The position numbers and the translations under genes were made by a program. The notes below the pieces were generated by a model. The model made no database searches, was not told where the DNA came from, and saw only the letters and a list, made by a program, of their open reading frames with translations. Source: a virus (Duplodnaviria; Caudoviricetes). Taken from it: a stretch of 54,814 bases of DNA. The DNA lies in the IMG/VR virus record IMGVR_UViG_3300033146_000595, positions 1 to 54,814 of that record. One strand, given 5' to 3'. Below are positions 1,291 to 23,237 of the stretch, piece after piece. The number at the start of each line of letters is the position of its first letter. The stretch's first letter is position 1.

Positions 1291-1319
1291 CGCATGAATT
1301 ACATATACCATTATAGAAA
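1291..1319 (+). promoter_or_regulatory. Phage-specific promoter motif, copy 1
   Basis: CGCA TGAAT TACAT ATACCA TTATAGAAA directly upstream of RBS of ORF 1338. Confidence 0.75.
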
Positions 1320-1337
1320 GATAGAGGAGGAGAAATA

Positions 1338-1607
1338 ATGGAAAATTTAGATCGAATTTTTAACATAGAGAAGAACAAGAAATGGATGACATTTGGTGTT
1401 TACGAAATGGATGCTAACACAAGCACAATCGAACGAACATGTAAGGCTATGAATGTAGAAACAAGAATAGTAAATATGGAGGGCGATGTTGAGGGTGTTC
1501 ACGCCAAATTGAAAGCATTAGAGTTATACACGATTGATGTTGTCTTTGGTGAAATGGTCAAGTTAGTTATTATGAACGCGCTATTATTACAAGAAGAGGA
1601 AGAGTAA
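1338..1607 (+). CDS. Hypothetical early protein
   Basis: gaggagg RBS; lies between promoter motif and hairpin. Confidence 0.75.
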   Translation: MENLDRIFNIEKNKKWMTFGVYEMDANTSTIERTCKAMNVETRIVNMEGDVEGVHAKLKALELYTIDVVFGEMVKLVIMNALLLQEEEE

Positions 1608-1624
1608 GTTAAACACTTATTCTT
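1600..1624 (+). terminator. Cassette-closing hairpin
   Basis: aagagtaagt-taaac-acttattctt plus T tract. Confidence 0.6.
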
Positions 1625-1641
1625 TGCTTTTTACCTAAACT

Positions 1642-1670
1642 CGCACATTTTACATATACCATTATAGAAA
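1642..1670 (+). promoter_or_regulatory. Phage-specific promoter motif, copy 2
   Basis: CGCA CATTT TACAT ATACCA TTATAGAAA; 1623-1670 matches 1272-1319 at 44/48 nt. Confidence 0.75.
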
Positions 1671-1689
1671 ACTAAAGGAGGTTTTTATA

Positions 1690-1893
1690 ATGAAATTCAG
1701 TTTTATGAAGATTTTAGGAATTGGTATACTAGCCAGCATTGGAACAAATGCGGTAGTAAACACAGCAAGTAGAATTAGAAGAGACAGACTTGAAGATGAA
1801 AACTATCAAGAAGAGATTAGAAGAAAAAGAGAAGAAAGAGAAACTCGCAAAGCAGAGAAAGCAGCTAGAAAAGCAGCGGCTAAGACTGTCTGA
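1690..1893 (+). CDS. Small membrane-anchored charged protein
   Basis: Hydrophobic N-terminus, R/E/K-rich helical tail, aaggagg RBS. Confidence 0.75.
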   Translation: MKFSFMKILGIGILASIGTNAVVNTASRIRRDRLEDENYQEEIRRKREERETRKAEKAARKAAAKTV

Positions 1894-1919
1894 AGTAGAG
1901 TAAACTCTGCTTCTTTTTT
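1892..1919 (+). terminator. Cassette-closing hairpin
   Basis: gaagtagag-taaa-ctctgcttc-tttttt. Confidence 0.65.
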
Positions 1920-1951
1920 CTTTATATTTTAAAAAATAGGAGGAGAAAGAG

Positions 1952-2224
1952 ATGAAAAAAGAATTAACCGGATGTACGGATATGTGTAAGGATTTGAAGA
2001 AGCATTATTTAGTAGTGTGTCAAGTGGGGTTTGATGAAATCAACGTTAGTAGATTTCGCGCTAACTGTCCAGAGTGTGGAGCAATGTTGTATTCCGCACA
2101 ACACCCAAGTACGTTTAAATCAGTGTTTCCAATAGAAAGACCATTCTGTCACCATTGTGGGGTGCGTGTGGATTCGTCAAAAGTTGAAACGGACGAGTCT
2201 AAATATTGTAATTCGGCGGGATAA
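1952..2224 (+). CDS. Zinc-ribbon protein
   Basis: CPECG and CHHCG pairs; aggagg RBS. Confidence 0.65.
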   Translation: MKKELTGCTDMCKDLKKHYLVVCQVGFDEINVSRFRANCPECGAMLYSAQHPSTFKSVFPIERPFCHHCGVRVDSSKVETDESKYCNSAG

Positions 2225-2227
2225 TAT

Positions 2228-2256
2228 CGCATAAATTACATGCCTCTTTATAGAAA
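2228..2256 (+). promoter_or_regulatory. Phage-specific promoter motif, copy 3
   Basis: CGCA TAAAT TACAT GCCTCT TTATAGAAA. Confidence 0.75.
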
Positions 2257-2273
2257 GAAAGAGGAGGAATAAT

Positions 2274-2495
2274 ATGAGAAAATTAGGACGTTGGACAGTA
2301 ATATTTAGAGGTAACTACTTTAGAGTTATAAGAGATATGTTTGTTCGAATCTATAAGGGATTTATATTCGTTATGAGATTCAATTGGCAGATCATTAGAC
2401 ATCTATTGAGAGTTATACTATTTATAGTTGGCATCAACTGGTTTGAAGTAGAAAGACTCATCAGACGTAAAATAAGGGGAGACTATGTAACATAG
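2274..2495 (+). CDS. Small basic amphipathic protein
   Basis: gaggagg RBS; R/F/I-rich. Confidence 0.65.
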   Translation: MRKLGRWTVIFRGNYFRVIRDMFVRIYKGFIFVMRFNWQIIRHLLRVILFIVGINWFEVERLIRRKIRGDYVT

Positions 2496-2507
2496 GCTCT
2501 TCCTTTT
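2474..2507 (+). terminator. Cassette-closing hairpin
   Basis: aaggggagactatg-taa-cataggctcttcctttt. Confidence 0.6.
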
Positions 2508-2546
2508 CGTTGTTTGCGTAAATTAAACTATAGGAGGATTTTAATT

Positions 2547-2789
2547 TTGAGAAGATTTTATGTAAAGTTTTTAAAAGAAGTTTATGAAGAAGATGGTGGA
2601 GAGCACTATTCACAAGGAGAAATGGAAGTTAATATTTCAGACTACTATGCTGCGCCAACAGAGGCCAATACAAAACCAACAGAAACATGGAAGATGTTAA
2701 GTCGAAAGTTAGAAATAGAAGTGGATAAACATCTACCGAAAAGACAATGCGTTAATTACATCATTGATGCAGAATTAAGAAGTCAATAA
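2547..2789 (+). CDS. Hypothetical protein (start moved to TTG 2547)
   Basis: aggagg at 2532-2537 precedes an in-frame TTG. Confidence 0.6.
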   Translation: MRRFYVKFLKEVYEEDGGEHYSQGEMEVNISDYYAAPTEANTKPTETWKMLSRKLEIEVDKHLPKRQCVNYIIDAELRSQ

Positions 2790-2811
2790 GAAGAAAAGGA
2801 GAACGAAGACG

Positions 2812-3180
2812 ATGGGAAAATTTCTATATACAATAGTATGTAGACACTATACTATCAACGGCATAATCGAAATAGATTTATATGAAGTGCTCAGACGTCT
2901 TCGTATAAATCCTACATGGAATTCATACCACTTTATTCATTATCATGTGTATAGTGGACAAGCGGTCGAATACGTAATAAAGAAGGTATTACGCAAAGTA
3001 GATCTTAATGAACATACTAAACAATTTTATTCATATCATAGTCCTTTTTCGATTATGTACACGGGTATGTATGATTTAAAGGATGTGTCGAACATGAATA
3101 ACGAGAGCATATTTATGAGATTAGGTATGAGTAACACGGAATTTAATAAAATATACGGAAGGAAAGAGGTGACGAAATGA
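2812..3180 (+). CDS. Hypothetical protein
   Basis: aaaggag RBS, 122 aa. Confidence 0.7.
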   Translation: MGKFLYTIVCRHYTINGIIEIDLYEVLRRLRINPTWNSYHFIHYHVYSGQAVEYVIKKVLRKVDLNEHTKQFYSYHSPFSIMYTGMYDLKDVSNMNNESIFMRLGMSNTEFNKIYGRKEVTK

Positions 3181-3314
3181 TATTTGCACCATTTAGGTAT
3201 GTACTCACTGGTATGATAATAGGCGTCGTTGCCGTTAGTCTATCAAACGATTATGTTATACTCAGTAGAAGAAGATACAACAGATTAAGAAGGAGAAATA
3301 ATAATGAAGAATAA
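3177..3314 (+). CDS. Small membrane protein (45 aa, not in ORF track)
   Basis: ATGA overlap with upstream stop, gaggtg RBS; MIFAPFRYVLTGMIIGVVAVSLS...RRRNNNEE*. Confidence 0.55.
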   Translation: MIFAPFRYVLTGMIIGVVAVSLSNDYVILSRRRYNRLRRRNNNEE

Positions 3315-3540
3315 ATTATTAATGATTACCGCGGGTATTGGGTTTTTTACCGCCGGAGTATTTTCTGGAAAACAAATCCAGAAATCATCACATAAAAAGA
3401 AAACCGTATACGCTGGGACATTACAGGTATATTATGTAAACGACTCACCTGAATTATATTTAGCTTTAACCGTGCCACCAGAAGATTTAGTAAATGCAGC
3501 GGACGTTGTATTAAACGTTAGTAATGAAAAAGTTAAATAG
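3304..3540 (+). CDS. Small membrane-anchored protein
   Basis: N-terminal TM helix; AGTLQV...PELYLAL C-terminal domain. Confidence 0.7.
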   Translation: MKNKLLMITAGIGFFTAGVFSGKQIQKSSHKKKTVYAGTLQVYYVNDSPELYLALTVPPEDLVNAADVVLNVSNEKVK

Positions 3541-3567
3541 CATGAAATACATACCGTATTATAGAAA
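3539..3567 (+). promoter_or_regulatory. Phage-specific promoter motif, copy 4
   Basis: AGCA TGAAA TACAT ACCGTA TTATAGAAA. Confidence 0.7.
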
Positions 3568-3587
3568 CGTGAAGAGGAGAGAAGTTT

Positions 3588-4130
3588 ATGAAAAGTAAAA
3601 CGAAGAACGATTTGAACGCGATAATTGACGATATAGTCGTTGATTACAATAACGCAGCACCAGATGAAAAAGGAAAGGTATTAGGAGACCTAATCAAAGT
3701 AGTAAATGTTGCTAAAGAAATTGAAAGCACAACGATTGAAAATCAGATTAAAAAGAAGAAATTCAAACTAGATGTGGAAAAATTAGAGTTAGATAGACGA
3801 CGAATTGATATTGATGTGGATAAGTTAGATATGGAACGAGATAAGTTGGAAAACGATCGAGACAAATTTAAGTTAACCACGGATAATGATATTCGTAAAA
3901 TCGAACTAGATGATTCCAAATTAGAGTTTGAAAAACGGAAGTTTGGTTTCGAATTGGATAAAGTTAAGGCTGATAAAATATTTAGTGCAATTATGAAAGG
4001 ATTAGAGGTAGGATTACCATTAATTATTTATGGAGGACTGTCGGTGTTGTCATTGAAGGCTATATACAAGGATGACGTTCGAGTTCCAAGTGAGACATGG
4101 GGCTTCATCAGAAGTGTTTCAAAGAAATAA
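3588..4130 (+). CDS. Coiled-coil protein with C-terminal membrane segment
   Basis: Heptad repeats (KLELDRR/KLDMERD/KLENDRD) then a hydrophobic helix. Confidence 0.75.
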   Translation: MKSKTKNDLNAIIDDIVVDYNNAAPDEKGKVLGDLIKVVNVAKEIESTTIENQIKKKKFKLDVEKLELDRRRIDIDVDKLDMERDKLENDRDKFKLTTDNDIRKIELDDSKLEFEKRKFGFELDKVKADKIFSAIMKGLEVGLPLIIYGGLSVLSLKAIYKDDVRVPSETWGFIRSVSKK

Positions 4131-4151
4131 AGGGTATTCATATACCCTTTA
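4128..4151 (+). terminator. Cassette-closing hairpin
   Basis: Perfect 10-bp stem taaagggtat-tcat-atacccttta overlapping the stop codon. Confidence 0.6.
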
Positions 4152-4185
4152 ATCTTATAAAATAAGAAGAAAAGGAGAAATAGCA

Positions 4186-4446
4186 ATGAAGATGAACATA
4201 TTCAAAAAATTACATGACGTTGTTGATAAGGGTAGTAGTGATATAGAGAAACTCGTTACCAAAGCAGAGATGTTTGTTGAACAAACTGAAGAACTACTTA
4301 GGTCAAGTGATAACAGTATTAAGATTATCGCAGGATTTGTAGTGGCGTCAATGGGTATACAGATGATAGCATCATATACTCAATTAAGAGTTAATGTAAA
4401 AATGTTATCTATCATGAAGGGTATACAAAATGAAAAGATTAAATAA
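4186..4446 (+). CDS. Hypothetical membrane protein
   Basis: aaaggag RBS; one hydrophobic helix. Confidence 0.7.
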   Translation: MKMNIFKKLHDVVDKGSSDIEKLVTKAEMFVEQTEELLRSSDNSIKIIAGFVVASMGIQMIASYTQLRVNVKMLSIMKGIQNEKIK

Positions 4447-4660
4447 TAACCAGAACGAAATGACTAAGAGAAATAGAAAGATATTTGAAGATAGAGAGGC
4501 TGGTTCAATGATAGTTGAGCTGTCCGAAGAGTATGGTTTATCCATCCCAAGGATTCATAGGATTTGTGTTCAAGAGGAAGTAAAGGATTTACGAGATAAA
4601 AATATTCAATTGGAAAATCAAGTTAACGCATGCCATAATATTTTAAGGCATAAAAAATAG
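4430..4660 (+). CDS. HTH DNA-binding protein (Mor-like)
   Basis: RNRKIF...GSMIVELSEEYGLSIPRIHRI helix-turn-helix pattern plus C-terminal coiled coil. Confidence 0.6.
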   Translation: MKRLNNNQNEMTKRNRKIFEDREAGSMIVELSEEYGLSIPRIHRICVQEEVKDLRDKNIQLENQVNACHNILRHKK

Positions 4661-4666
4661 GAGGAA

Positions 4667-5059
4667 ATGATGAACAAATTTAAAAGCTGGTATAAACGAA
4701 ACAAAAAAACATTAGCGGTAGTAGGGTTTGGAGTCGTGGGCGGAGTTTGCGCGGTATATGCGTACAGAGGTATCAACAGCGCAATTCATATTAGTAAGGC
4801 GAAAATGCTTATGGTTGTGGAGAACAAACTTAAACTAGTACCCGATGGAGATGTAATTGATATTATAGTAGGTAATAGGAGTGATGATTTTTCAAGAACT
4901 GTAGTATCCAAGCAATGGACCAAGTTGGATGGAGAAGTATTATATTTGGGTAAGGTATTGAGTAGGGTAGAGTTATCTGATGATGAGAAGATAGCCAACC
5001 AATTGAGTCGAATCGGTCGTAGTATTACACACGCGATTAATAAGATCTCAAAAGATTAG
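4667..5059 (+). CDS. Hypothetical membrane-anchored protein
   Basis: Basic N-terminus followed by a TM helix. Confidence 0.7.
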   Translation: MMNKFKSWYKRNKKTLAVVGFGVVGGVCAVYAYRGINSAIHISKAKMLMVVENKLKLVPDGDVIDIIVGNRSDDFSRTVVSKQWTKLDGEVLYLGKVLSRVELSDDEKIANQLSRIGRSITHAINKISKD

Positions 5060-5063
5060 TATT

Positions 5064-5092
5064 CGCGTAAAATACATAGGCTATTATAGAAT
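5064..5092 (+). promoter_or_regulatory. Phage-specific promoter motif, copy 5
   Basis: CGCG TAAAA TACAT AGGCTA TTATAGAAT. Confidence 0.7.
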
Positions 5093-5118
5093 CATAAAAT
5101 AAAAAGGAGGATTTAAAA

Positions 5119-5478
5119 ATGCAAAAAGAAGTTATTATTAAAGTAGTTGAAGAAATTGCTGACGTGTTCACTAGCGCAGTAACAGTTGCCGGTATGGCAG
5201 GTGGAATGTGGGTAGTTATGGACGCAGTCGACAAAAGACTCAACAGACGAATAAAAGCTCACGCGGCTAAATTAGCTTTTGAAAATGATTTAAAAGAAGG
5301 AGAAATACAGGAAATTATTCGTATAGACAAGGGAATTCGATTCTTGGTGAAACCTTTTGTTATAGGTGTAGCATTATACATGGTTGTCAAGGTAAAAGAG
5401 GATGGTCAGTATGTAATGAGATACATTGGTAGCAGAGGAATTACACAAGCAGAATCGGTTAATATGTTTAACGAGTAA
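5119..5478 (+). CDS. Hypothetical membrane protein
   Basis: aaggagg RBS; two hydrophobic segments. Confidence 0.7.
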   Translation: MQKEVIIKVVEEIADVFTSAVTVAGMAGGMWVVMDAVDKRLNRRIKAHAAKLAFENDLKEGEIQEIIRIDKGIRFLVKPFVIGVALYMVVKVKEDGQYVMRYIGSRGITQAESVNMFNE

Positions 5479-5503
5479 AGAGAGCGTATGCTCTTTTTCT
5501 TTA
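5477..5503 (+). terminator. Cassette-closing hairpin
   Basis: aaagagagc-gtat-gctcttttt plus T tract. Confidence 0.6.
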
Positions 5504-5527
5504 TATTTTAAAAAAGGAGTAATGTGA

Positions 5528-5818
5528 ATGTATGATTTGGATACCCTGAGCGACATGATTAATTTCTTAGTTGATGAGTATCCAGATATTGATATTCGTA
5601 ACTCAAAGAAGTTGTTTAGGCAAAGAGAGTATGAAAAAATAATCATCGAGGAGATTGTTGAGTACTGTGGTGATCGACTCAGCGAAGACGTTATTGAATT
5701 GATAGAAGATTACGAGTTAGTGTATGAGTATTTCAATAACGCCCATAAAAACGATGCATACAAGTTTCAATTAAATGTGATACGTAAACTATTAAGGTTT
5801 TTAAGAAGGAGGAATTAG
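5528..5818 (+). CDS. Hypothetical acidic protein
   Basis: aaggag RBS, 96 aa. Confidence 0.7.
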   Translation: MYDLDTLSDMINFLVDEYPDIDIRNSKKLFRQREYEKIIIEEIVEYCGDRLSEDVIELIEDYELVYEYFNNAHKNDAYKFQLNVIRKLLRFLRRRN

Positions 5819-5822
5819 AAGT

Positions 5823-6289: not shown

Positions 6290-6291
6290 AA

Positions 6292-6320
6292 CGCAGATTT
6301 AACATTGTCTATAATGAATA
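6292..6320 (+). promoter_or_regulatory. Phage-specific promoter motif, copy 6
   Basis: CGCA GATTT AACAT TGTCTA TAATGAATA. Confidence 0.65.
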
Positions 6321-6340
6321 ATAAAGAAGGAGGAATTTGA

Positions 6341-6553
6341 ATGAAAACTGTAACTAAGCTTGGTATAGTAGGACTTGCAACCTCAGCTATAATTTCGATT
6401 GTATTTGGAGTGATTGACATTAGTGATCGCCGTAAAGGAAAGAGACGATTCAATAAACAAGACATCGATTTAATAGCAGAGGAAGTAGCTACTAAACAAG
6501 AAGAAATTCGGTTAGCAAAACGAAGAAAACCTAAAGTTATTAAAGAAGATTAG
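6341..6553 (+). CDS. Small membrane-anchored basic protein
   Basis: N-terminal TM helix, aaggagg RBS. Confidence 0.7.
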   Translation: MKTVTKLGIVGLATSAIISIVFGVIDISDRRKGKRRFNKQDIDLIAEEVATKQEEIRLAKRRKPKVIKED

Positions 6554-6580
6554 GGGTATACACATATACCCTTTCTCTTT
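6552..6580 (+). terminator. Cassette-closing hairpin
   Basis: aggggtata-caca-tatacccttt plus pyrimidine tract. Confidence 0.6.
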
Positions 6581-6608: not shown

Positions 6609-7490
6609 GTGAATGTAAAAGCAAAACAAGGAGTAGCAATAGGTTTTTCGCTATTAGGCGCCGTTGGTACTATATCGACCGCCGTATTAGTTAGAGAGGC
6701 CGCGAAGAAAGAAGAAAAAGTGTATCAAACTTTATTACCATTTAAGAAAGGTAATATTAAAGACATTTTACTTATGTATAAATTACCAATAGCAGTGGGT
6801 GTTGCCACAGTATCATCTATAGTAGCATCATCTATCATGAGTAGACGAGCTGAGGCATCATTGCTTAGTATGGCTGTCATGGCCGATCAAGGATGGAGAA
6901 GGTATAAGAATCAGGTTAAATCAACTCTTGGGATAGGTACTCATAATGATATTCTAAAGGGTATAGGTAATAAAGTACAAAAAAATAATCAATCACTCAT
7001 ACCCAAACTTTCTGACGATGATACTAGAGAGTTGTATTACGATGACCTAGTTGGATATTTTCAAGCTAAACCAGAAGATTTAATATATGCGTATGCTACT
7101 ATAAACGAGATGTTAAATACAAGTCTTGGTACCAACAAGGGTGATGTATTTGATGGCGTTACTATTGATACGTTCTTACGATTGGCGAAGGCGACTGTGG
7201 TTGGTGGTACTGGTACCGATGACTCGCTTGATGAGTGGGGTTGGTCGATGGATTATTTAGAAGAAGGTTTTAATGAGTGTTGGATACATATGGGGTTTAG
7301 TAATGAAGTTACTGACGATGGGATTGTCCCATATAAAATTATTTCATGGATTGAAGAACCCATTCTATTATGTGATTACATAGACAATTATGACGATCAA
7401 TATTCACACGAGGAAACTAGAAAGTTGAATATGGATGATTACGTCGAAAAAGTTGAATTGAGTAAGTTCAACAAGAAGAACTACAAATAA
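6609..7490 (+). CDS. Membrane-associated phage protein, DUF6353-like paralog 1
   Basis: Two hydrophobic helices then LYYDDLVGYF...INEML...WGW pattern shared with 7519 and 9395. Confidence 0.6.
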   Translation: MNVKAKQGVAIGFSLLGAVGTISTAVLVREAAKKEEKVYQTLLPFKKGNIKDILLMYKLPIAVGVATVSSIVASSIMSRRAEASLLSMAVMADQGWRRYKNQVKSTLGIGTHNDILKGIGNKVQKNNQSLIPKLSDDDTRELYYDDLVGYFQAKPEDLIYAYATINEMLNTSLGTNKGDVFDGVTIDTFLRLAKATVVGGTGTDDSLDEWGWSMDYLEEGFNECWIHMGFSNEVTDDGIVPYKIISWIEEPILLCDYIDNYDDQYSHEETRKLNMDDYVEKVELSKFNKKNYK

Positions 7491-7518
7491 TTTATGATGA
7501 AAGATGGGGCCTTAACTA

Positions 7519-8283
7519 ATGAAAAGTAATGTGTTAAAAACGGTAAAACCATTCGTGGCCAAACACGAACCAGAACTATTAATGGTGATGGGAATAAGTG
7601 GAATGATATTCTCAGTAGCATGGGGTATCAAAGCTACTGGTAAGGCGATTAGAAAAATTGACTTACGGAAACAAGAGTTAAATAAGGATAAATTAACAAC
7701 GCGAGAGGTTATACAAACTACGTGGAAATTATATTTACCAGTTGTAATTAGTACGGCCGCTTCTATACCGTGTATAGTTGCGGGGAACAGAGTTTCTAAT
7801 AAGCGTAACATGGCGCTTGCCGCCGCGTATACGATGACAGAGACAGCTTTACAGGAGTACCAGGATAAAACGAAAGAAATCCTTGGTGAGAAGAAATATG
7901 AAAAATTACAAGAACAAGTATCAGAAGAGAAGGTTCGAAATACATACCAAGAGGGTATGAAGAACGTTACATTAATAGGAGATGGCGAAAGTCTATTCTA
8001 TGAACCTTTGTCAGGAAGATATTTTAAAACAAACTGGAATCGAATATCGAAGGCCGCTAATGAGTTAAACGCAGATGCGCTGGGTAGCATGTCTGGTGAA
8101 ATAACATTAAGTGAGTGGTATGATATTCTTGGTTTACCTGATACAGAGTTGTCAGATGAACGTGGATGGACGATAGCGAACGGTAAACAGGGCATAATTG
8201 ATATTTCAATAGATTCTGTCATATCGCCAGATAACCAACCATGTGGAGCAATACGGTACAATACAATGCCTAATAAATTTTAA
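7519..8283 (+). CDS. DUF6353-like paralog 2
   Basis: PELL..G...KAT.KA...WKLYLP...ALAAAY...LFYEPLSGRYF...ANELN...LSEWYDILG...GW. Confidence 0.7.
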   Translation: MKSNVLKTVKPFVAKHEPELLMVMGISGMIFSVAWGIKATGKAIRKIDLRKQELNKDKLTTREVIQTTWKLYLPVVISTAASIPCIVAGNRVSNKRNMALAAAYTMTETALQEYQDKTKEILGEKKYEKLQEQVSEEKVRNTYQEGMKNVTLIGDGESLFYEPLSGRYFKTNWNRISKAANELNADALGSMSGEITLSEWYDILGLPDTELSDERGWTIANGKQGIIDISIDSVISPDNQPCGAIRYNTMPNKF

Positions 8284-8411
8284 TTGATATTCCCTATTAT
8301 AGGTTGTGATACGCAGGGCATGTGTATCATGGAAAAAATAGTTCACATACGTCCTAGATCGCTAGCCGATGAGGTTTTAAATATGCGCAGCGAGGTGTGT
8401 GAGTATGTCCA

Positions 8412-8440
8412 CGCAGATTATACATGGCTTATAATGAGGG
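8412..8440 (+). promoter_or_regulatory. Phage-specific promoter motif, copy 7
   Basis: CGCA GATTA TACAT GGCTTA TAATGAGGG. Confidence 0.7.
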
Positions 8441-8482
8441 AAACCTCAGTTAAGAAAAAATAAGAAAAAAGGAGAATGAAAG

Positions 8483-8674
8483 ATGGAAAATTTAGGAACA
8501 GATGTTGTTGAAGTAGTTTCAGGAGATGTATGTACGATTCAAAAAGCTTCAAAAGTATTATTGCCAGTTGCGGCAGTAATAGGATTGGGTGTATTGGTTG
8601 TATCATTATTCAAAAGAAACAAAGCTAAAAAAACAGCAGCTCAAGCTGAAGAAGTAAATCCAGAAGTCGAATAA
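8483..8674 (+). CDS. Small single-pass membrane protein
   Basis: aaaggag RBS; central TM helix. Confidence 0.7.
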   Translation: MENLGTDVVEVVSGDVCTIQKASKVLLPVAAVIGLGVLVVSLFKRNKAKKTAAQAEEVNPEVE

Positions 8675-8695
8675 TTTATTAGATAACTGGGCCCG

Positions 8696-8738
8696 GAGAG
8701 ATAAGAACGATGTTTTAGAACATGGTTCTTTATCTTTT
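8696..8738 (+). terminator. Cassette-closing hairpin
   Basis: gagagataagaacgatgtt-ttag-aacatggttctttatctttt. Confidence 0.6.
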
Positions 8739-8768
8739 CAACTTAAAAAATACTGAAAAGGAGTAAGT

Positions 8769-9383
8769 ATGGAAAAATTCATAGGAAATTCAAATGCTGG
8801 TAAAAATAAACCAGTCACGGAACGTGAAAAACTACAAGCGATAACGAGTAATGTTTCGGTAAAAAAAGATTCCGAATTTAAGAAGTTTAAGAGAAACTTC
8901 TTTGCGGAGGACGCTAACACGGTAAAAGGACAGGTGTTTGCTAGCGTTATCATTCCAGGTATTCAACGACTTATTACCGACATGGTTAAAACGAGCATCG
9001 ATGTTTTAATTTACGGGGGTAGAAGTAGGGATAATAGGGATAGTAGAAGTGGTAACATTAGCTATAAGTCATATTACGATAGAAATAATAATAATCGTTC
9101 TGACTATAATAAAATACCATCATCAACATATAATAAAAATGTTTTTTCATTTAATGAAGTAGTGTTGTTTGATAGGGGCGAAACAGAGGAAGTGTTGTTA
9201 AGTCTTAATGAGCAAATAGATAAGTATGGTATGGTTTCTGTCGCTGATTTCTACGATATGGTAGGGCAAAGTGCACCATATACGGCTAATAAATATGGAT
9301 GGCGTGACCTTAGAGATGTTGGAATAGACCGAGTACGAGATGGATATTCTATTAATTTCCCTAAAGCATCGCCATTAGAATAA
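8769..9383 (+). CDS. Conserved phage protein of unknown function
   Basis: C-terminal YGMVSVADFYD..G....YTANKYGW.DL motif recognised from related siphophages; resembles the C-terminal motif of the DUF6353-like proteins. Confidence 0.7.
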   Translation: MEKFIGNSNAGKNKPVTEREKLQAITSNVSVKKDSEFKKFKRNFFAEDANTVKGQVFASVIIPGIQRLITDMVKTSIDVLIYGGRSRDNRDSRSGNISYKSYYDRNNNNRSDYNKIPSSTYNKNVFSFNEVVLFDRGETEEVLLSLNEQIDKYGMVSVADFYDMVGQSAPYTANKYGWRDLRDVGIDRVRDGYSINFPKASPLE

Positions 9384-9394
9384 TAGGAGGATAC

Positions 9395-10384
9395 ATGATG
9401 AATAATTTTGGAAGTGTGTTAAATAAATTTGGGTTCTGGACCAAGAGAAAATCTCCAGAGTTGTTGGTTGCAGGAGCAATTATAGCGGCCGCAGGTAGTA
9501 TCATATTGGCGGTTAAAGCCACGCCAAAAGCGGAAATAGTAGTGTCAAAAGCTAATAAAGAAATTAAAAGAATTAAAATCAATATGAACGATGGTAATCT
9601 TATAGGTAATAAAGAATACTCTGTTAGTTTAGGTAAAAAGGATTTAACTAGAGTTTATGCTAAAACATCATTGGAATTAGGTAAATTATATTTACCAGCA
9701 GCGATTGGATTTGGATTAACCGTTAGTGGTATTTTAGGTTCTCATAAAATCATGAGAGGTCGAAACGTCGCGTTAGCAGCTGCATACACTACACTCGATA
9801 ATGGTTATAAATCATACAGAGGTAGAGTAGCCACTAAGGTTGGTGAGAAGGTTGAGAATGATATTTTCAGAGATATTCATGGGGAGAAGAAAGAAATAAC
9901 TACCTTGGATAAAGATGGTAATGAAGTAACAAAGATGAAAACTGTAAAAGGACCACACGTTGCTGTGGATAGTGACTTTGCTGTGCTATATGATCAAAAC
10001 GCCAAAGAGTGGATTAAAGATACGAACATGGTTCTTAATTTATTAGCGATGAAGGAAAAGTACCTGAATCAAAAACTACAATATGCAGGATCACTATTCC
10101 TACATGAAGTGTATGATGAAATTGGTATTGATATTCATAGCCTTGGTGAGAAGAAGTCTCAAGCATCAAGAGTATTGGGATGGATTTACGACCCATCTGA
10201 TGATACAAGAGATAGTTACATTTCTTTAGGGTTATTCGATACTATGGGTAATCGTAATCAATATGCAATGAATGCATTAAGAAATAACGAACAAGAAATA
10301 TTCTTAGAGTTTAATGTTGATGGTGATATTCTTACTGGAAACAATGGTAATAAAACATTCACTAAGTTTAGAAAGGTGATCTAA
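9395..10384 (+). CDS. DUF6353-like paralog 3
   Basis: KSPELL...KATPKA...KLYLPA...RNVALAAAY...LFLHEVYD.IG...GWIY...LEFNVDG. Confidence 0.7.
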   Translation: MMNNFGSVLNKFGFWTKRKSPELLVAGAIIAAAGSIILAVKATPKAEIVVSKANKEIKRIKINMNDGNLIGNKEYSVSLGKKDLTRVYAKTSLELGKLYLPAAIGFGLTVSGILGSHKIMRGRNVALAAAYTTLDNGYKSYRGRVATKVGEKVENDIFRDIHGEKKEITTLDKDGNEVTKMKTVKGPHVAVDSDFAVLYDQNAKEWIKDTNMVLNLLAMKEKYLNQKLQYAGSLFLHEVYDEIGIDIHSLGEKKSQASRVLGWIYDPSDDTRDSYISLGLFDTMGNRNQYAMNALRNNEQEIFLEFNVDGDILTGNNGNKTFTKFRKVI

Positions 10385-18649: not shown

Positions 18650-18870
18650 TGGATGCAAAACAAAAGACATATTTAATTAATGATAAAGAAGTTACAGAAG
18701 CAGTGTTTATAAATGAATTAAATTATCAGTTGAAGTTGGAGAAGCGACAAAACATTAGCCATGGTAAATTTACACAGGATGAACTGTTTAGTGTGGTTAT
18801 GAATAATGAAAAAAAATCAACATTCTTCGAAGTGGGTAATAAGAAATTTAAATGTTATCCGAACGCATAA
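18649..18870 (+). CDS. Hypothetical protein
   Basis: gaggagg RBS, coupled to the helicase stop. Confidence 0.65.
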   Translation: MDAKQKTYLINDKEVTEAVFINELNYQLKLEKRQNISHGKFTQDELFSVVMNNEKKSTFFEVGNKKFKCYPNA

Positions 18871-18892
18871 ATTACATTGCCTACTATAGAAA
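18864..18892 (+). promoter_or_regulatory. Phage-specific promoter motif, copy 8
   Basis: CGCA TAAAT TACAT TGCCTA CTATAGAAA. Confidence 0.75.
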
Positions 18893-18906
18893 GAGGAGGA
18901 GATAAA

Positions 18907-19173
18907 ATGAACGATAACAATTTTAAAAAGTTGGTTTATGCAGGATTTGGTTTGATTTTCTTAAACGGTATTAAAAATAGAGTACTACGCATCAGACGAA
19001 ACAACAAAAGGGTTGAGACAATTAATGAAATAGTTGAAACAATCAACGATGTTGGCGAGATGGGTATGGGAACTGTTGACTGTGTTAAGGAACTTACTAG
19101 AATTGTGGTAAACCATGATAAGAAAATTATTGATATTCAAAACAATCCAAAACTTAAGAAGAAGAAGGTCTAA
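18907..19173 (+). CDS. Small membrane-anchored protein (start moved to ATG 18907)
   Basis: gaggaggag RBS precedes MNDNNFKKL; the track's TTG start lies inside the promoter motif. Confidence 0.7.
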   Translation: MNDNNFKKLVYAGFGLIFLNGIKNRVLRIRRNNKRVETINEIVETINDVGEMGMGTVDCVKELTRIVVNHDKKIIDIQNNPKLKKKKV

Positions 19174-19190
19174 CACAGACTTTTTTCTTC
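19158..19190 (+). terminator. Cassette-closing hairpin
   Basis: gaagaagaaggtct-aacac-agacttttttcttc. Confidence 0.6.
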
Positions 19191-19199
19191 TATTGTTTG

Positions 19200-19228
19200 C
19201 GCAAAAAATACATTGCCTACTATAGGAG
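19200..19228 (+). promoter_or_regulatory. Phage-specific promoter motif, copy 9
   Basis: CGCA AAAAA TACAT TGCCTA CTATAGGAG, abutting the RBS. Confidence 0.75.
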
Positions 19229-19239
19229 GAATGATAGAT

Positions 19240-19422
19240 ATGAAGATTAAATTCATTAAGGATTTCGGAACCGGTGCTATAGGTATAAAGATAGGCGAAG
19301 AATTTGAGGTTGTTACTAAGAAAGAAGCAGACAAATGGAATGACTATGTACGGTATCAGATTAGGATAACCGGTATTCTGGGAGTTATTAATGTACCATC
19401 AGCATATGTAATAGAACTATAA
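19240..19422 (+). CDS. Small beta-rich (SH3-like) protein (start moved to ATG 19240)
   Basis: aggagg at 19224-19229; MKIKFIKDFG...GEEFEV...NVPSAYVIEL. Confidence 0.65.
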   Translation: MKIKFIKDFGTGAIGIKIGEEFEVVTKKEADKWNDYVRYQIRITGILGVINVPSAYVIEL

Positions 19423-19451
19423 TAGAGAGATCACAAAGGTCTTTCTATTTT
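19421..19451 (+). terminator. Cassette-closing hairpin
   Basis: aatagagagatc-acaaa-ggtctttctatt. Confidence 0.6.
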
Positions 19452-19545
19452 ATATTTTAAAAAATAGAAGGAGAAAGAGATGAAAAACGAAGAAAGAAAA
19501 TATTTTAGAGTATCAAGAAATGTATTAATATGGAGTTGATAATAT

Positions 19546-20184
19546 ATGTGTAAAGAATTAAAAACAATCGGTATAGCAGGTGAAGGTGCCACTGGTAAAA
19601 GTGGTATGGTTGAACAAATAGTAAAGGACGTTAATGAAACATTACGTAAACGTGGAATAATAATAGCTGTATACCCAGGAATGGGACAGGATTTAATCAG
19701 TGATATTTATGATGAGTATGTTTATATGGATGTTAGTAGTCTTGATTTTTACGACTCTGATAACCACAAAACAAATACCAAAACGTATATCGAAGATGCG
19801 ATTGATATTGTGTCTGTGGAAAAAGGAAAGTATAGTGTGTGTTTTGTCGATGCTACTGATGAAATATTAGAAGCTTTGGCGTCTTTTAATGAACCATACG
19901 TTATATTCTATCCGGTAACTCCAAAAGAATCAATATTAAAAATGTTAGCTCAGATGTATGTGGCGAATCCTAGTGCTGGTCGCGCGAAGACGATAGCGGA
20001 CGTAATATTACACCACGAAGAAAGAATCAATGAATTAAGATTATATCCTAATTCAATAGGAGCATCAACGGGTATAATCAATGAGGATTTAGTGAATGAT
20101 TTGGTTTCTATGAGTTATGAAGAACGATTGCAAGTAATACGGGCATTCTCTATGATGAAAACTAGTTCGAAGAGGGGTAAATGA
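19546..20184 (+). CDS. P-loop / nucleotide-kinase-like protein, possibly degenerate
   Basis: IGIAGEGATGKS Walker-A-like start and a second degenerate IIAVYPGMGQD loop. Confidence 0.4.
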   Translation: MCKELKTIGIAGEGATGKSGMVEQIVKDVNETLRKRGIIIAVYPGMGQDLISDIYDEYVYMDVSSLDFYDSDNHKTNTKTYIEDAIDIVSVEKGKYSVCFVDATDEILEALASFNEPYVIFYPVTPKESILKMLAQMYVANPSAGRAKTIADVILHHEERINELRLYPNSIGASTGIINEDLVNDLVSMSYEERLQVIRAFSMMKTSSKRGK

Positions 20185-20185
20185 T

Positions 20186-20413
20186 ATGGTCGTGGCCCCC
20201 GAAAAGAATTGGATAACGTTTGATTACGTAAAGGGTGATATGATCGCTCATCAACCTCATGTTTTAACCAAGGGTGATAGAGTAGAGATTGATCACTTGG
20301 ATGGTGTTTATGAGGTGTATAGAGCAGATTTTTATACCGTGACCATCATTAATGTTGATACGAATGTACACCTGATCATACATATCAGAGATGTTAAAAG
20401 GGTGTGTGTGTGA
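20186..20413 (+). CDS. Hypothetical small beta-barrel protein
   Basis: GDRVEI...G.YEV pattern; gagggg RBS. Confidence 0.6.
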   Translation: MVVAPEKNWITFDYVKGDMIAHQPHVLTKGDRVEIDHLDGVYEVYRADFYTVTIINVDTNVHLIIHIRDVKRVCV

Positions 20414-20784
20414 TGGGACGAACATTAAGAACATTATCTGACATGCGTGCTGAACGGAGATATAAGAACGCCATCATCATTGATAATTGGCATCACTTAA
20501 AAGATTGGTATTCTAAAAATGGTCCATCAGACACACACGAGATAGTGTTTGATGATCACTCTGCTCGAATACAAGTGCGTAAAGAATTAAGAGATAAGAC
20601 TGGTTATTATGGTACGTATGGTAATCATTACCATTACCTATCAACTCATACTTTTTATGGGATGGGTATTTGGATTCAATCAACAGAACAATTATACAAA
20701 GCTGGATTCAAAGGAATCATCATTCGTAACTGGGATGCAAAAGAAGAAAATCAAGAATGGCCCAAGGAAACATGGACCAGTTAA
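20413..20784 (+). CDS. Hypothetical protein
   Basis: TGATG coupling with the upstream gene. Confidence 0.6.
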   Translation: MGRTLRTLSDMRAERRYKNAIIIDNWHHLKDWYSKNGPSDTHEIVFDDHSARIQVRKELRDKTGYYGTYGNHYHYLSTHTFYGMGIWIQSTEQLYKAGFKGIIIRNWDAKEENQEWPKETWTS

Positions 20785-21122
20785 AAAAATACATCCTGAA
20801 CATTCGACATTTGACGGAGGAGACTCAGTTAGAGCTTAAGGAGTATGCCAATGAGTTACAGATCGATGACGAAACCTTGTGGTTTGATATTTGCATACAT
20901 AATTCAACAGAGGCCATACTAACCACCGATGACATACGTATGTTAATCACTAAGTATAGACCTAGAGCTATTGATACCTTATTAATATCATACGTTACCG
21001 TAAAAGCAATAATGCAAATTAGTGGGGTTAGTCAATACAATCCTTGGGGGGCGTATACCACACCCAAAAGAAAAAAGAAAAAAATATTTAATCAAGAAAC
21101 CAAACAATATGAATTTAAATAA
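20757..21122 (+). CDS. Hypothetical protein
   Basis: ORF in operon; exact start uncertain. Confidence 0.6.
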   Translation: MAQGNMDQLKKYILNIRHLTEETQLELKEYANELQIDDETLWFDICIHNSTEAILTTDDIRMLITKYRPRAIDTLLISYVTVKAIMQISGVSQYNPWGAYTTPKRKKKKIFNQETKQYEFK

Positions 21123-21143
21123 AAGGATGACTTAAAATAATTC

Positions 21144-21161
21144 ATTGTTTACCTAAACAGG
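21144..21161. promoter_or_regulatory. Palindromic operator-like site TGTTTA-CC-TAAACA
   Basis: Intergenic; exact 18-bp inverted copy at 36406-36423. Confidence 0.45.
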
Positions 21162-21206
21162 GTTTAGTAAAAACTTAAGCGTGTTTGCGCAAAAAAAGGA
21201 GAACTT

Positions 21207-21716
21207 ATGAGTAATATGAGTGAATTAGATATAGAAAGACAAGAAGCAAAGAGAGTAAGAGCGTATATAGCTAATGATATTCGAGTAGCAAGAGAAGTAT
21301 TCATTATGCAATTATGCTTAGCGTTATATGAAGAACAAGAAACTAATATAGAATTCGGAGTAACTAATTTTAGAGAGGTTATTAACGAATTCATTAAAGG
21401 TGATTCAGCAGACACATTAACTTTGGATGGAAAAATATTCTCATCCTACCTGGAAGACATCGCGTATGATGTGGGTGGCCCAGATGGAGATGATACGGCA
21501 TGCGTGTTCACGATGGTTGGGGACACGCCTCAAATCTATCCGATGAAAATGTATACGGTAACGTATGATATTAATGTGGTTCCATTAATCGTTGCTAAAG
21601 TTAGACGTGCTCAAAAATGGAAACGAGTTTCAACATTCATCGAGGCGACTAGTTTCAAAGAAGCTCGAGAAGTATTTAAAGCGGAATTCAAGAAGAATAA
21701 TTCAGATAGAAATTAA
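21207..21716 (+). CDS. Hypothetical protein
   Basis: aaaggag RBS, 169 aa. Confidence 0.7.
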   Translation: MSNMSELDIERQEAKRVRAYIANDIRVAREVFIMQLCLALYEEQETNIEFGVTNFREVINEFIKGDSADTLTLDGKIFSSYLEDIAYDVGGPDGDDTACVFTMVGDTPQIYPMKMYTVTYDINVVPLIVAKVRRAQKWKRVSTFIEATSFKEAREVFKAEFKKNNSDRN

Positions 21717-22005
21717 GAGAACCTGGACAGAAGCGTTCACGGACATATCACAGGCGTGGAAAGATTACAAATTAGATGATTGGAATAAAGTAGGTAAACC
21801 AATAGCGGTATTTTTCATCACGTTAACAAATGTTATGTATACATTAGTTATGCTTATGGGATTATTAATTATTACCATATTAATGAGCGTGGTGTTTCCC
21901 GCGTTAATCATAGTCGTTGGACCACCCATGTGGTTATTAGGATTGATATTTGAAAAGATAGTTAGAGTACTCAAGAAGAAGAGTGAGACGATAGCGGACG
22001 AATAA
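21592..22005 (+). CDS. Membrane protein, start unclear (possible frameshifted continuation of 21207)
   Basis: Long hydrophobic C-terminal half; no clear RBS/start; 125-nt overlap with the upstream ORF. Confidence 0.45.
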   Translation: MLKLDVLKNGNEFQHSSRRLVSKKLEKYLKRNSRRIIQIEIKRTWTEAFTDISQAWKDYKLDDWNKVGKPIAVFFITLTNVMYTLVMLMGLLIITILMSVVFPALIIVVGPPMWLLGLIFEKIVRVLKKKSETIADE

Positions 22006-22020
22006 GAAAGGAGGAATCCT

Positions 22021-22221
22021 ATGATGTATAGTTATTGCGATTTATATGGGTATGGTAAACCATCTAGTTTATATGGGTATGGTAAACCATCTAGTAAGGA
22101 GTTGTATAGAGAGTACACTGAGAGTAGAACTAGAAGAATGGAGAAACCTTTTTTATACCCAGATCCGATATACAAAGACATTAGGAGTTATAGGTGTCGG
22201 AACCCAGATACTACTGATTGA
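22021..22221 (+). CDS. Hypothetical protein with internal tandem duplication
   Basis: aaaggagg RBS; LYGYGKPSS x2. Confidence 0.55.
   Translation: MMYSYCDLYGYGKPSSLYGYGKPSSKELYREYTESRTRRMEKPFLYPDPIYKDIRSYRCRNPDTTD
22041..22094 (+). repeat. Perfect 27-bp tandem duplication
   Basis: tttatatgggtatggtaaaccatctag x2. Confidence 0.95.
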
Positions 22222-22256
22222 AATTTAAGAAGAGTAGTTCATACAGAAGACCATAT

Positions 22257-22290
22257 AAAAAGAAGCGGCTACATAGTCTCTTCTTTTTTT
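22257..22290 (+). terminator. Intrinsic terminator-like hairpin
   Basis: aaaaagaagcggcta-ca-tagtctcttcttttttt. Confidence 0.55.
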
Positions 22291-22294
22291 GTAA

Positions 22295-22323
22295 CGCATC
22301 AAATACATACCTCTTTATAGAAA
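22295..22323 (+). promoter_or_regulatory. Phage-specific promoter motif, copy 10
   Basis: CGCA TCAAA TACAT ACCTCT TTATAGAAA; 22315-22338 identical to 1662-1685. Confidence 0.75.
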
Positions 22324-22341
22324 ACTAAAGGAGGTTTTAAA

Positions 22342-22455
22342 ATGATTGAAGGATTAATATTTTGTACGTTATTTGTATTAGTATATGCAATAGTGAGACA
22401 CGAGTATTATAGAGACATAGATCGTAATAAAGCAGAGAAGGTTATAAGAGATTAG
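22342..22455 (+). CDS. Small membrane protein (37 aa, not in ORF track)
   Basis: aaggagg RBS; MIEGLIFCTLFVLVYAIVRHEYY...VIRD*. Confidence 0.7.
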   Translation: MIEGLIFCTLFVLVYAIVRHEYYRDIDRNKAEKVIRD

Positions 22456-22483
22456 GGAAATTTACATATTCCCTTTCTTTTTT
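22454..22483 (+). terminator. Cassette-closing hairpin
   Basis: agggaaat-ttac-atattccct plus T tract. Confidence 0.55.
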
Positions 22484-22512
22484 CGCACATATTACATGGT
22501 CCATAATAGAAA
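22484..22512 (+). promoter_or_regulatory. Phage-specific promoter motif, copy 11
   Basis: CGCA CATAT TACAT GGTCCA TAATAGAAA. Confidence 0.75.
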
Positions 22513-22531
22513 GAAAAAGGAGGAATAAATT

Positions 22532-22828
22532 ATGAAAGAGGAATTTTTAAAAGTTATACCAGCCATACCAAATGGCAAGGGAACGATTATGATGTATCTA
22601 CACAGTAATGGTAAAACACATCCGACCGGATTAGAATTCGCAACTTTAGAGTTAGCCGATAAATATTCAGACATCATTGGAGATGTTGTGGATGATTGGG
22701 TTAGAACTGAGGTTCTTATCAATAGGGGACGAGGTATGTTACTAGGTGTTGGTATTGGAGTGATTGGTATTGGAGTAGTATTATTGGTTAAAAAACTTAA
22801 AAAGAATAAACTTGAACAGGATATTTAA
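22532..22828 (+). CDS. Tail-anchored membrane protein
   Basis: aaggagg RBS; Gly-rich C-terminal TM helix. Confidence 0.7.
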   Translation: MKEEFLKVIPAIPNGKGTIMMYLHSNGKTHPTGLEFATLELADKYSDIIGDVVDDWVRTEVLINRGRGMLLGVGIGVIGIGVVLLVKKLKKNKLEQDI

Positions 22829-22847
22829 CATATCCTTTTCTTTTTTT
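22818..22847 (+). terminator. Cassette-closing hairpin
   Basis: aggatat-ttaac-atatcct plus long T tract. Confidence 0.6.
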
Positions 22848-22879
22848 ATTTACGCAAACACTGGTAAAAAAGACGAATC

Positions 22880-23200
22880 ATACACCGTGGAGTTTACCTA
22901 ATAAAGCCCTGTCACTTTTGTGTCAATTATCAATATATAAATGACATATTCATTGATATTCGCACAATATAATAATATAACAGTAAAAAACATCTTTTTG
23001 TGTCACTTTTGTGTCACTTTTGTGTCACTTTTCGGGAAGGAATTGACATGGAGTTTGGGTAATAATACGGGGTGTTTAGGTAATTCTCACGGTGTGTGTA
23101 TGGGTTTGTGTCACTTATGTCACTTTTATTTATATATTAATTTAAAATAAAATATTAATATAAGATTAACTTAGAAAAGTTTTTGACATTTGACACAAAT
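22880..23200. repeat. Iteron-like repeat cluster, putative replication origin
   Basis: ttttgtgtcac x3 tandem (22996-23028), further TGTCAC/TGACA copies in both orientations, AT-rich tract 23124-23180, imperfect inverted repeat 22882-22900/23077-23095. Confidence 0.6.
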
Positions 23201-23208
23201 GATAGTGT

Positions 23209-23237
23209 CGCACTAAATACATAGTCTTTTATAGAGA
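23209..23237 (+). promoter_or_regulatory. Phage-specific promoter motif, copy 12 (heads the nuclease-RNAP operon)
   Basis: CGCA CTAAA TACAT AGTCTT TTATAGAGA. Confidence 0.7.

Follow-up and report, generated by a model that had tools for sequence, protein, structure and literature searches.

The twelve-copy motif and its place in the genome

We analyzed a stretch of phage DNA of 54,814 bp (hereafter the window), which is the whole of an IMG/VR virus record (estimated 91% complete, 35% G+C) and which carries twelve copies of the spaced motif CGCA-N5-TACAT-N6-YWATR. GC and AT skew are positive throughout the window and all long open reading frames (ORFs) lie on the + strand. A holin gene (625-1035) closes the late module and is followed by the first copy of the motif, after which come many small ORFs without known families. 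Downstream of these small ORFs are the genes for three DUF6353 proteins, a 1283-residue primase-polymerase, a single-stranded DNA-binding protein and a helicase, and the segment 23312-27524 encodes a resolvase-like protein, an exonuclease, a protein of 987 residues and a conserved protein of 94 residues. The window is an entire phage genome in permuted form, belonging to the Lactococcus-1706/actinophage supergroup, and the 987-residue protein is a two-barrel single-subunit RNA polymerase with helix-turn-helix (HTH) domains at both ends. We propose that the twelve copies are probably promoters of this polymerase.

The pattern gave nine exact matches in the window where 0.01 were expected from dinucleotide-preserving shuffles, and none of 100 shuffles reached nine. 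Allowing up to one mismatch gave 12 matches, three of them with one mismatch, against 0.17 expected. This search returned exactly the twelve positions that a first-pass annotation of the same DNA had listed (Table 1), and, as stated there, all 12 copies are on the + strand, with none on the - strand. A weight matrix built from the 12 sites scored these sites at 26-42 bits and the rest of the window, both strands included, below 8 bits; the highest score across 20 shuffled genomes was 13.4 bits. The first-pass annotation had also seen no copy in the structural arm. With the 12-site matrix this holds, but the looser family-wide matrix described below gives one borderline late-arm match at 51187. 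This match lies within an ORF, has neither a TAT hexamer nor a ribosome-binding site, and is probably due to chance.

Each copy consists of three boxes, A (CGCR, bases 1-4), B (wACAT, bases 10-14) and C (CTwTwAT, bases 18-24), and these are followed by a purine tract at bases 25-30 and then by the ribosome-binding site. The centres of the boxes are about 9.5 bp apart, close to one helical turn, so that the boxes lie on one face of the helix. The conserved stretch extends past the pattern noted earlier and comprises, in order, a T at position -6 (11 of the 12 sites), CGCA, a spacer of A and T only, TACAT, a weak G..CT, the hexamer and, after TATA, GAAA. Hexamers lacking key bases of a -10 box (CTTTAT, TTTTAT) occur among the 12 copies, and the AGGAGG abutting the hexamer at 19200 is seen in the site sequence, both as previously described. 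The relic that had been placed at 2511-2537 is also real; alignment puts it at 2515-2533 and its deletion at about 7 nt instead of 9.

The copies sit at gene boundaries just upstream of ribosome-binding sites, in agreement with the earlier description: from base 26 to a start codon with a Shine-Dalgarno sequence there are 15-30 nt in the gene-paired copies, with the exception of the copy at 23209, where the distance is 78 nt, and the copy at 8412 lies about 46 nt ahead of gene 8483. A simple gene caller, which gives wrong starts for long genes, was applied only to the genes adjacent to the motif. A strong hairpin with a T-run stands directly upstream of five of the 12 copies. The copies at 6292 and 8412, like the one at 34492 in the closest relative (G001, below), form a subtype that ends in TATAATG-A rather than TATAG-AAA. 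They head the two long replication-gene units, versus single small ORFs elsewhere, and could be a middle class or differ in promoter strength.

Table 1. Features of the window, with positions counted from its first letter
Feature	Position	Strand	Remarks
Candidate promoter copy 1 (CGCA..TACAT..CATTATA-GAAAG)	1291..1320	+	Before gene 1338-1607; first copy past the late-module holin; hairpin and T-run just upstream
Candidate promoter copy 2	1642..1671	+	Before gene 1690-1893; orthologous copy in G001 at 28418; hairpin and T-run upstream
Candidate promoter copy 3 (hexamer CTTTAT)	2228..2257	+	Before gene 2274-2495
Shortened motif relic, box B lost, about 7 nt missing	2515..2533	+	Immediately before a ribosome-binding site
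Candidate promoter copy 4 (AGCA variant)	3539..3568	+	Before gene 3588-4130; same AGCA variant in the G001 orthologue at 30365
Candidate promoter copy 5 (CGCG variant)	5064..5093	+	Before gene 5119-5478
Candidate promoter copy 6 (TATAATG subtype)	6292..6321	+	Before 6341-6553 and the DUF6353 genes
Candidate promoter copy 7 (TATAATG subtype)	8412..8441	+	Ahead of 8483-8674 and the long series of replication genes that reaches about 18.9 kb
Candidate promoter copy 8	18864..18893	+	Before gene 18907-19173
Candidate promoter copy 9	19200..19229	+	GGAGG from motif base 26, right after TATA; strong hairpin and T-run upstream
Candidate promoter copy 10	22295..22324	+	Before small ORF 22342-22455
Candidate promoter copy 11	22484..22513	+	Before gene 22532-22828
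Candidate promoter copy 12	23209..23238	+	Heads the resolvase-like/exonuclease/RNA polymerase operon; copy best conserved in the family
Resolvase-like gene	23312..23647	+	Predicted co-transcription with the polymerase; kept in 4 of 4 compared phages
Exonuclease gene	23568..24278	+	Predicted co-transcription with the polymerase; kept in 4 of 4 compared phages
987-residue two-barrel single-subunit RNA polymerase	24275..27238	+	Two weak N-terminal HTH matches (about 48-108); GADFDGD at 513-519; C-terminal sigma-region-4-like HTH (about 950-985)
94-residue protein, phrog_4303	27240..27524	+	Immediately follows the polymerase gene in 4 of 4 compared phages
Non-coding region with conserved G+C-rich blocks	27525..27910	.	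Probable cos/packaging site and physical ends; no motif copy and no strong sigma-70-like promoter

The polymerase and the motif in related phages

The 987-residue protein matches phrog_4291 ('RNA-dependent RNA polymerase') over its full length (E = 0), and its GADFDGD loop is invariant across an alignment of 30 homologues. Scanning the whole protein against Pfam gave a weak RdRP match and a C-terminal HTH above the cut-offs of HTH_23, HTH_38 and Sigma70_r4_2, and scanning the N-terminal part alone gave weak HTH-type matches at two places, around residues 48-67 and 89-108. An AlphaFold model computed from the 30-sequence alignment had a mean predicted local distance difference test (pLDDT) score of 77.6. 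A Foldseek search with this model retrieved QDE-1 (E 3.7e-8), the Thermus-phage gp64-type structures 8f72 (E 2.5e-6) and 8f5m (E 3.9e-6), plant RDR2 and the virion polymerase gp96 of phage P23-45 (E 9e-4); a search of solved structures with the sequence gave nothing meaningful. The family comprises at least 7999 proteins at E <= 1e-10. Homologues are found in 250 phage records, all with less than 60% identity to the 987-residue protein, and the hosts of these phages include Arthrobacter (95), Gordonia (55), Streptomyces (54), Lactococcus (13) and others. Residues 16-31 (24275-24370, HYGTPR.SGRYPWGSG) are near-invariant in the 30 homologues yet modelled with a pLDDT below 50, and may be a short linear signal, for instance for packaging or processing.

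The same protein family is the subject of preprint 10.1101/842583, on the putative RNA polymerase of the 1706/actinophage supercluster, which had pointed out the DxDGD loop and the HTH domains at the termini and suggested that the protein acts as a polymerase. The word 'promoter' does not occur in its main text; the present work is the first to connect the family with a DNA signal. Publications from 2024 and 2026 continue to name the family 'RNA-dependent RNA polymerase', with no comment on its role, and an alternative database label is 'HTH DNA-binding protein'. In the depositors' record of phage 1706 (EU081845.1), three genes of the non-structural arm, orf62, orf71 and orf75, carry the label 'structural protein'; in the RefSeq copy orf75, which is the polymerase homologue, has been renamed 'RNA-dependent RNA polymerase'.

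We ran a repeat finder on relatives of the window phage without any prior on register, and the same three boxes with the same spacing were recovered in Lactococcus phage 1706, Streptomyces phage Scap1 and Arthrobacter phage Arcadia. The 12 copies of phage 1706 are spread over 24.0 to 46.5 kb; their box A is mostly CACA and their hexamer TATAGT. Scap1 (61% G+C) has six copies by the repeat finder, seven by pattern and eight at 14 bits or more, and Arcadia has eight copies, all with the hexamer TATAAT. The closest relative, a genome referred to as G001 whose polymerase is 71% identical, has 13 copies, on the + strand only. In each compared genome the copies start right after the lysis genes and one copy heads the polymerase operon. 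Phage 1706 has in addition a second repeat family (26602-26662, 29946-30006 and 43294-43354 of its genome, L014 in our set) made of a hairpin, a T10 run and GAAAATrAATrGAAA; it has the appearance of a terminator with a further conserved element behind it, and is distinct from the main motif.

The association of motif and polymerase was examined in both directions, using for the first a family matrix of 27 nt in which five genomes (the window, G001, 1706, Scap1 and Arcadia) were equally weighted. In the forward direction, 80 IMG/VR loci were selected solely because they encode the polymerase (44-73% identity) and were scanned at a threshold of 14 bits. At least one match on the gene strand was found in 74 of the 80 loci, with 131 forward matches versus 3 reverse ones. 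Five of the six loci without a match have less than 850 nt upstream of the gene, and the remaining one (L061) is a true miss. In the reverse direction, IMG/VR was scanned with a 14-base motif pattern alone, which gave 112 stretches, and 80 of these 112 were examined: 69 encode at least one of eleven marker proteins of the family, 40 of them including the polymerase. In these 69 loci the gene strand carries all 85 pattern matches and the other strand carries none. The other 11 of the 80 stretches carry no marker, and may be chance matches or marker-free regions. The family matrix gave no match on either strand of the unrelated Lactococcus phages sk1 and TP901-1 or of Streptomyces phage phiC31; the annotated early promoters of sk1 are of the canonical TTGACA-17-TATAAT form. 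On this sequence evidence, a two-barrel polymerase is encoded, the motif co-occurs with it, and the motif is absent from three unrelated phages of the same host genera, which is what a promoter of a phage two-barrel polymerase would look like.

The motif is also retained while its surroundings drift. In eight orthologous promoter pairs of the window and G001, identity is 71% over bases 1-30 versus 43% in the 30 nt upstream. The best conserved copy is the one ahead of the polymerase operon, which was compared in 56 non-identical relatives: its hexamer consensus is TTTTAT, and conservation sets in sharply at base 1 and continues to about base 32. A tandem TTGACATTTGRCACAAAT element at 23179-23208 (51665-51694 in G001) stands just before this promoter in the window and G001 only, and may be a site for a lineage-specific regulator. 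We considered the tandem TTGACA before 23209 as a host -35 and rejected it, there being no usable -10 at 16-18 bp and TTGAC being found upstream in only 2 of the 56 relatives.

Which protein could read the motif was approached through conservation. Seven non-structural proteins of the window are conserved in G001, 1706, Scap1 and Arcadia, namely a 204-residue unknown protein, the primase-polymerase, the helicase, the resolvase-like protein, the exonuclease, the polymerase and the 94-residue unknown protein. Among these seven only the polymerase has a recognisable DNA-binding domain, and searches with the 94- and 204-residue proteins gave no informative look-alike. Pfam and PHROGs scans of the left-arm proteins found no sigma factor, nor any MotA- or AsiA-like family, of which remote homologues are possible. 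No T7-type right-hand polymerase was seen either, the large 1283-residue protein being a primase-polymerase with a DUF5906 P-loop; two large ORFs of the structural arm were outside this Pfam scan. A Mor-like protein at 4430-4660 was tried as a reader and rejected, as it falls short of the cut-offs in its matches to Pfam Mor (E 1.1e-3) and phrog_532 (E 6e-4). Because the match is weak and the protein is conserved only in the closest relative, G001, it is not a family-wide reader. In 1706, Scap1, Arcadia and ReqiPoco6 the genome ends with the gene for the 94-residue protein, which could be a cofactor of the polymerase.

Fit to sigma-70 promoters and rival explanations

The hexamer of box C invites another explanation, in which the host sigma-A holoenzyme uses bases 19-24 as its -10 while boxes A and B bind a phage activator that replaces the -35 contact in the manner of T4 MotA/AsiA. 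The activator could then be a conserved unknown protein, or the HTH domains of the 987-residue protein acting as an accessory factor. This account would explain how the first polymerase is expressed without a virion enzyme. It also suits the geometry: with bases 19-24 taken as -12 to -7, box A falls at about -30, which is where the T4 MotA box sits. We consider it unlikely on the following measurements, made on the 12 window sites, on the 56 promoters of polymerase operons and on a family-wide set of 182 sites, 163 after removal of identical ones.

As the first-pass annotation had remarked, there is no -35 box, nothing being conserved at that place in any of the three sets. Box B (wwTACA) resembles a -35 hexamer but lies only 5 bp ahead of the hexamer of box C. 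At base 20, the '-11' place, A occurs in just 45% of the 163 sites and T in 44%; four of the 12 window hexamers lack this A (CTTTAT, CTTTAT, a CTTTAT-type hexamer and TTTTAT), as does the consensus of the best conserved copy. No TG extension is present at bases 16-17 in the 12 window sites, and sigma-70-type sites are not enriched in the window (74 versus 85.6 expected, and 69 versus 79.9 expected). Conservation continues over bases 25-32, which is unusual for a discriminator. The A+T-rich motif is retained alike in a Streptomyces phage of 61% G+C and in phages of Firmicutes. A host-holoenzyme reading would moreover leave the phage polymerase without a recognisable promoter anywhere in the genome, and the left-arm scans found none of the MotA, AsiA or sigma-like proteins that it might call on.

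The position of the ribosome-binding site bears on where transcription would start. Scoring was possible for 121 of the 163 sites, where a strict ribosome-binding site and a start codon accompany an ORF of 40 codons or more. In 19 of these 121 the ribosome-binding site begins no later than base 30, and in seven it begins at base 25-26; the seven include 19200 in the window and 29453 and 44797 in G001. A start 6-8 nt after the hexamer, near base 31, would cut off these ribosome-binding sites, while a start at the junction of T24 and R25 keeps all of them. Base 25 is a purine in 100% of the 163 sites and base 24 a T in 99%, and bases 25-30 are nearly all purine, including bases 28-30, which lie outside the matrix used to pick the sites. 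The likely start is thus this invariant T24|R25 junction, that is, A25 or G26 in the window. Judged by their sequence, the sites do not behave as sigma-70 (sigma-A) promoters in any of the four respects considered, namely the -35, the '-11' A or TG, the spacing of the start relative to the leader, and enrichment.

Taken with the two-way co-occurrence, these features support the suggestion of the first-pass annotation that the motif is a promoter unlike those of sigma-70, for a phage-encoded RNA polymerase initiating at TATA|G. In our judgement the twelve copies are probably promoters of the phage's own 987-residue two-barrel polymerase and not of the host sigma-A holoenzyme. Several points weigh against this. 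The link between protein and DNA rests on co-occurrence, and a search of the literature found no 5' end, binding assay or in vitro transcription for any member of the family. Five of the 12 copies follow hairpin and T-run terminators, which are signals known for the bacterial polymerase. Bases 19-24 do resemble a sigma-70 -10, with T19 in 88%, A23 in 88% and T24 in 99% of the 163 sites, and the eight Arcadia copies all have the perfect hexamer; these same observations speak for the host holoenzyme. The family sites were chosen with a gap-free matrix, so that their fixed spacing and the composition of bases 1-27 are partly built in, and many of the 80 polymerase loci come from one sample and are related. 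The universally conserved proteins of 204 residues (8769-9383) and 94 residues (27240-27524) could be the true readers. Finally, the label 'structural protein' of 1706 orf75 is annotation only, and that in ReqiPoco6 was copied by similarity to 1706.

Two further explanations deny the motif a promoter role altogether. It might be a regulator site, such as an operator or a place of antiterminator loading, or an RNA signal for processing or a translation leader. Its position on the coding strand just before ribosome-binding sites means that it would be present in read-through RNA, and its purine tract runs into the ribosome-binding site. We nevertheless find this quite improbable: the motif lacks dyad symmetry and is not predicted to fold by itself, five of the 12 copies come directly past a terminator-like hairpin, where a new transcript must start, and no other repeated signal stands ahead of units that have no promoter besides it (the polymerase operon in 56 relatives among them), with no enrichment of sigma-70-like sites to substitute for it. 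That the copies are chance repeats, or functionless leftovers of a recent duplication of small cassettes, we regard as barely credible. The copies at 1291 and 1642 do share 15 identical upstream nt, and several G001 copies at 49.8-51.0 kb resemble tandem cassette duplicates. However, the count exceeds the 0.01-0.17 expected, the flanks of most copies are unrelated, the motif is retained at orthologous places while flanks drift, and it is retained across phages whose polymerases are only 38-47% identical, which already contradicts this account.

A proposed transcription cycle, its precedents and its meaning

If the motif is the promoter of the two-barrel polymerase, a simple cycle can be outlined. 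The polymerase would bring its own DNA readers, two N-terminal HTH units and one C-terminal unit like sigma region 4, and these three units would read the boxes. The HTH units would dock on boxes A and B, one helical turn apart on the same face of the duplex. Docking would set the catalytic core over the A+T-rich box C, which would melt, and RNA would begin at the purine right after T24 (A25 or G26 here). With such a start the mRNA would open with the conserved purine tract and keep its ribosome-binding site. The copies would drive short early units, several of them ended by hairpin and T-run terminators, as well as the two long replication units and the polymerase operon itself.

This raises the matter of the first polymerase molecules. 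No other type of promoter is visible ahead of the polymerase operon in the 56 relatives, and we infer that either the host enzyme reads this motif class or the first polymerase enters with the DNA. Because the polymerase operon has only this kind of promoter, the first molecules would most likely be delivered by the virion. The 'structural protein' label on orf75 of phage 1706 presumably comes from virion mass spectrometry, which we take to be the basis on which that laboratory assigns it.

The late genes would be served differently. Neither the 12-site nor the family matrix gave a convincing copy in the late arm, and a search for a second, late promoter motif past the polymerase gene gave only G+C-rich blocks of packaging type. 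A strong sigma-70-like site is present in the 1.5 kb after the polymerase gene in only one of 41 relatives, and no + strand terminator is predicted between 23209 and about 35.9 kb. Since the late arm lacks the motif, the sigma-70-like site is found in a single relative and no terminator intervenes, late genes would probably be reached by read-through from 23209 across the joined ends. We tentatively extend this to a self-contained machine, possible but less than probable as a whole, in which a two-barrel core with three HTH readers recognises, sigma-free, a tripartite promoter some 30 bp long, is packaged in the virion and delivered by injection, and performs early, middle and (by read-through) late transcription independently of the host in siphophages of 45-80 kb.

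The joined ends referred to would lie in the 386-bp non-coding stretch past the gene for the 94-residue protein. It contains G+C-rich blocks, for example ..CACCCCCCTC.., ..TAGGGGGG.. and ..TCCGGGGG.., together with a TTCTCCTTTC element, and of 32 dereplicated relatives, 18-25 have variants of these blocks downstream of the polymerase gene. A 3' cos overhang is annotated in ReqiPoco6 at the equivalent place. The stretch 27525-27910 is probably the cos or terminase recognition region with the physical genome ends, and the assembly would then be circularly permuted. In virion order no large gene of the right arm follows that of the 987-residue protein, an arrangement shared with phage 1706, Scap1 and Arcadia. 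Elsewhere in the genome, the three DUF6353 paralogues (6609-7490, 7519-8283 and 9395-10384) are interleaved with the conserved 204-residue protein, a set (6609-10384) that the actinophages retain and of which phage 1706 has only a part. The primase-polymerase gene had no Megablast match among phages. A contig scan for the host gave a single 1310-bp contig from a metagenome-assembled genome labelled Spirochaetia, and one polymerase homologue is in a metagenome-assembled genome labelled Izemoplasmataceae; neither was taken to indicate the host.

Phage-specific promoters for phage-encoded polymerases are known from T7, N4, P23-45, phiKZ and AR9. The nearest precedent is Thermus phage P23-45, whose virion polymerase gp96 and non-virion polymerase gp64 are both of the two-barrel type and each have their own early-gene promoter motif; in the available text of that work ONT-cappable-seq and ChIP-seq connected the motifs with start sites, and co-occurrence of motif and polymerase among relatives served as support. 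Like these enzymes, the 987-residue protein is a single-chain two-barrel phage polymerase, and its model matches 8f72, 8f5m and 8h2m, although sequence identity is only 11-14%. The two systems differ in that gp96 is fused to the tape measure protein and in that start sites were mapped there while the promoters here are read from the sequence alone. The term 'helix-turn-helix' and a tripartite layout with steps of about 10 bp do not appear in the available P23-45 text. YonO of the Bacillus prophage SPbeta is likewise single-chain and distant from multisubunit polymerases, a kinship drawn from the literature only. The accessible account describes an enzyme of about 100 kDa that transcribes long phage operons, with one start mapped and no promoter assigned; YonO serves late genes, whereas the motif here would serve early and middle genes.

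The promoters of T7/SP6-type phages (Autographiviridae) are alike in being compact repeated signals of about 25-30 nt on one strand with rigid spacing, and in having an A+T-rich TATA that directly precedes the purine start, with conservation reaching into the first transcribed bases. Their polymerase is of the right-hand type, in contrast to the two-barrel enzyme here, and the promoter here is longer, with three spaced boxes, so that the likeness is analogy and not homology. The copy at 18864 (..CTACTATAGAAAG) bears an apparent resemblance to the SP6 core. In T4 middle promoters the MotA box replaces the -35 and lies about 12 bp before a -10-like hexamer. A phage-specific upstream box is common to both, but here the left-arm scans found no MotA, AsiA or sigma homologue, the '-11' A is unconserved and the ribosome-binding site is too close.

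What is new is the candidate promoter of the 1706/actinophage polymerase family, with its tripartite layout and its conservation over two bacterial phyla. No description of these promoters was found in full-text literature, a search that did not extend to the older 1706 and ReqiPepy6 papers and supplements, and searching the literature with motif strings returned unrelated papers only. A candidate promoter kept from Lactococcus to Streptomyces phages makes the annotation puzzle posed by this protein directly testable, and with the motif a transcription map becomes available for actinophages and dairy phages, of which several hundred have been sequenced. If our reading is true, a two-barrel polymerase would find its promoters through built-in HTH domains, as opposed to a sigma factor or a template-strand motif, and would make with its promoter a compact single-protein orthogonal pair for Gram-positive hosts. 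The same signal would then work in Firmicutes and Actinobacteria because promoter and polymerase travel together, which would help to explain how this lineage crosses phyla with a G+C content far from that of its hosts.

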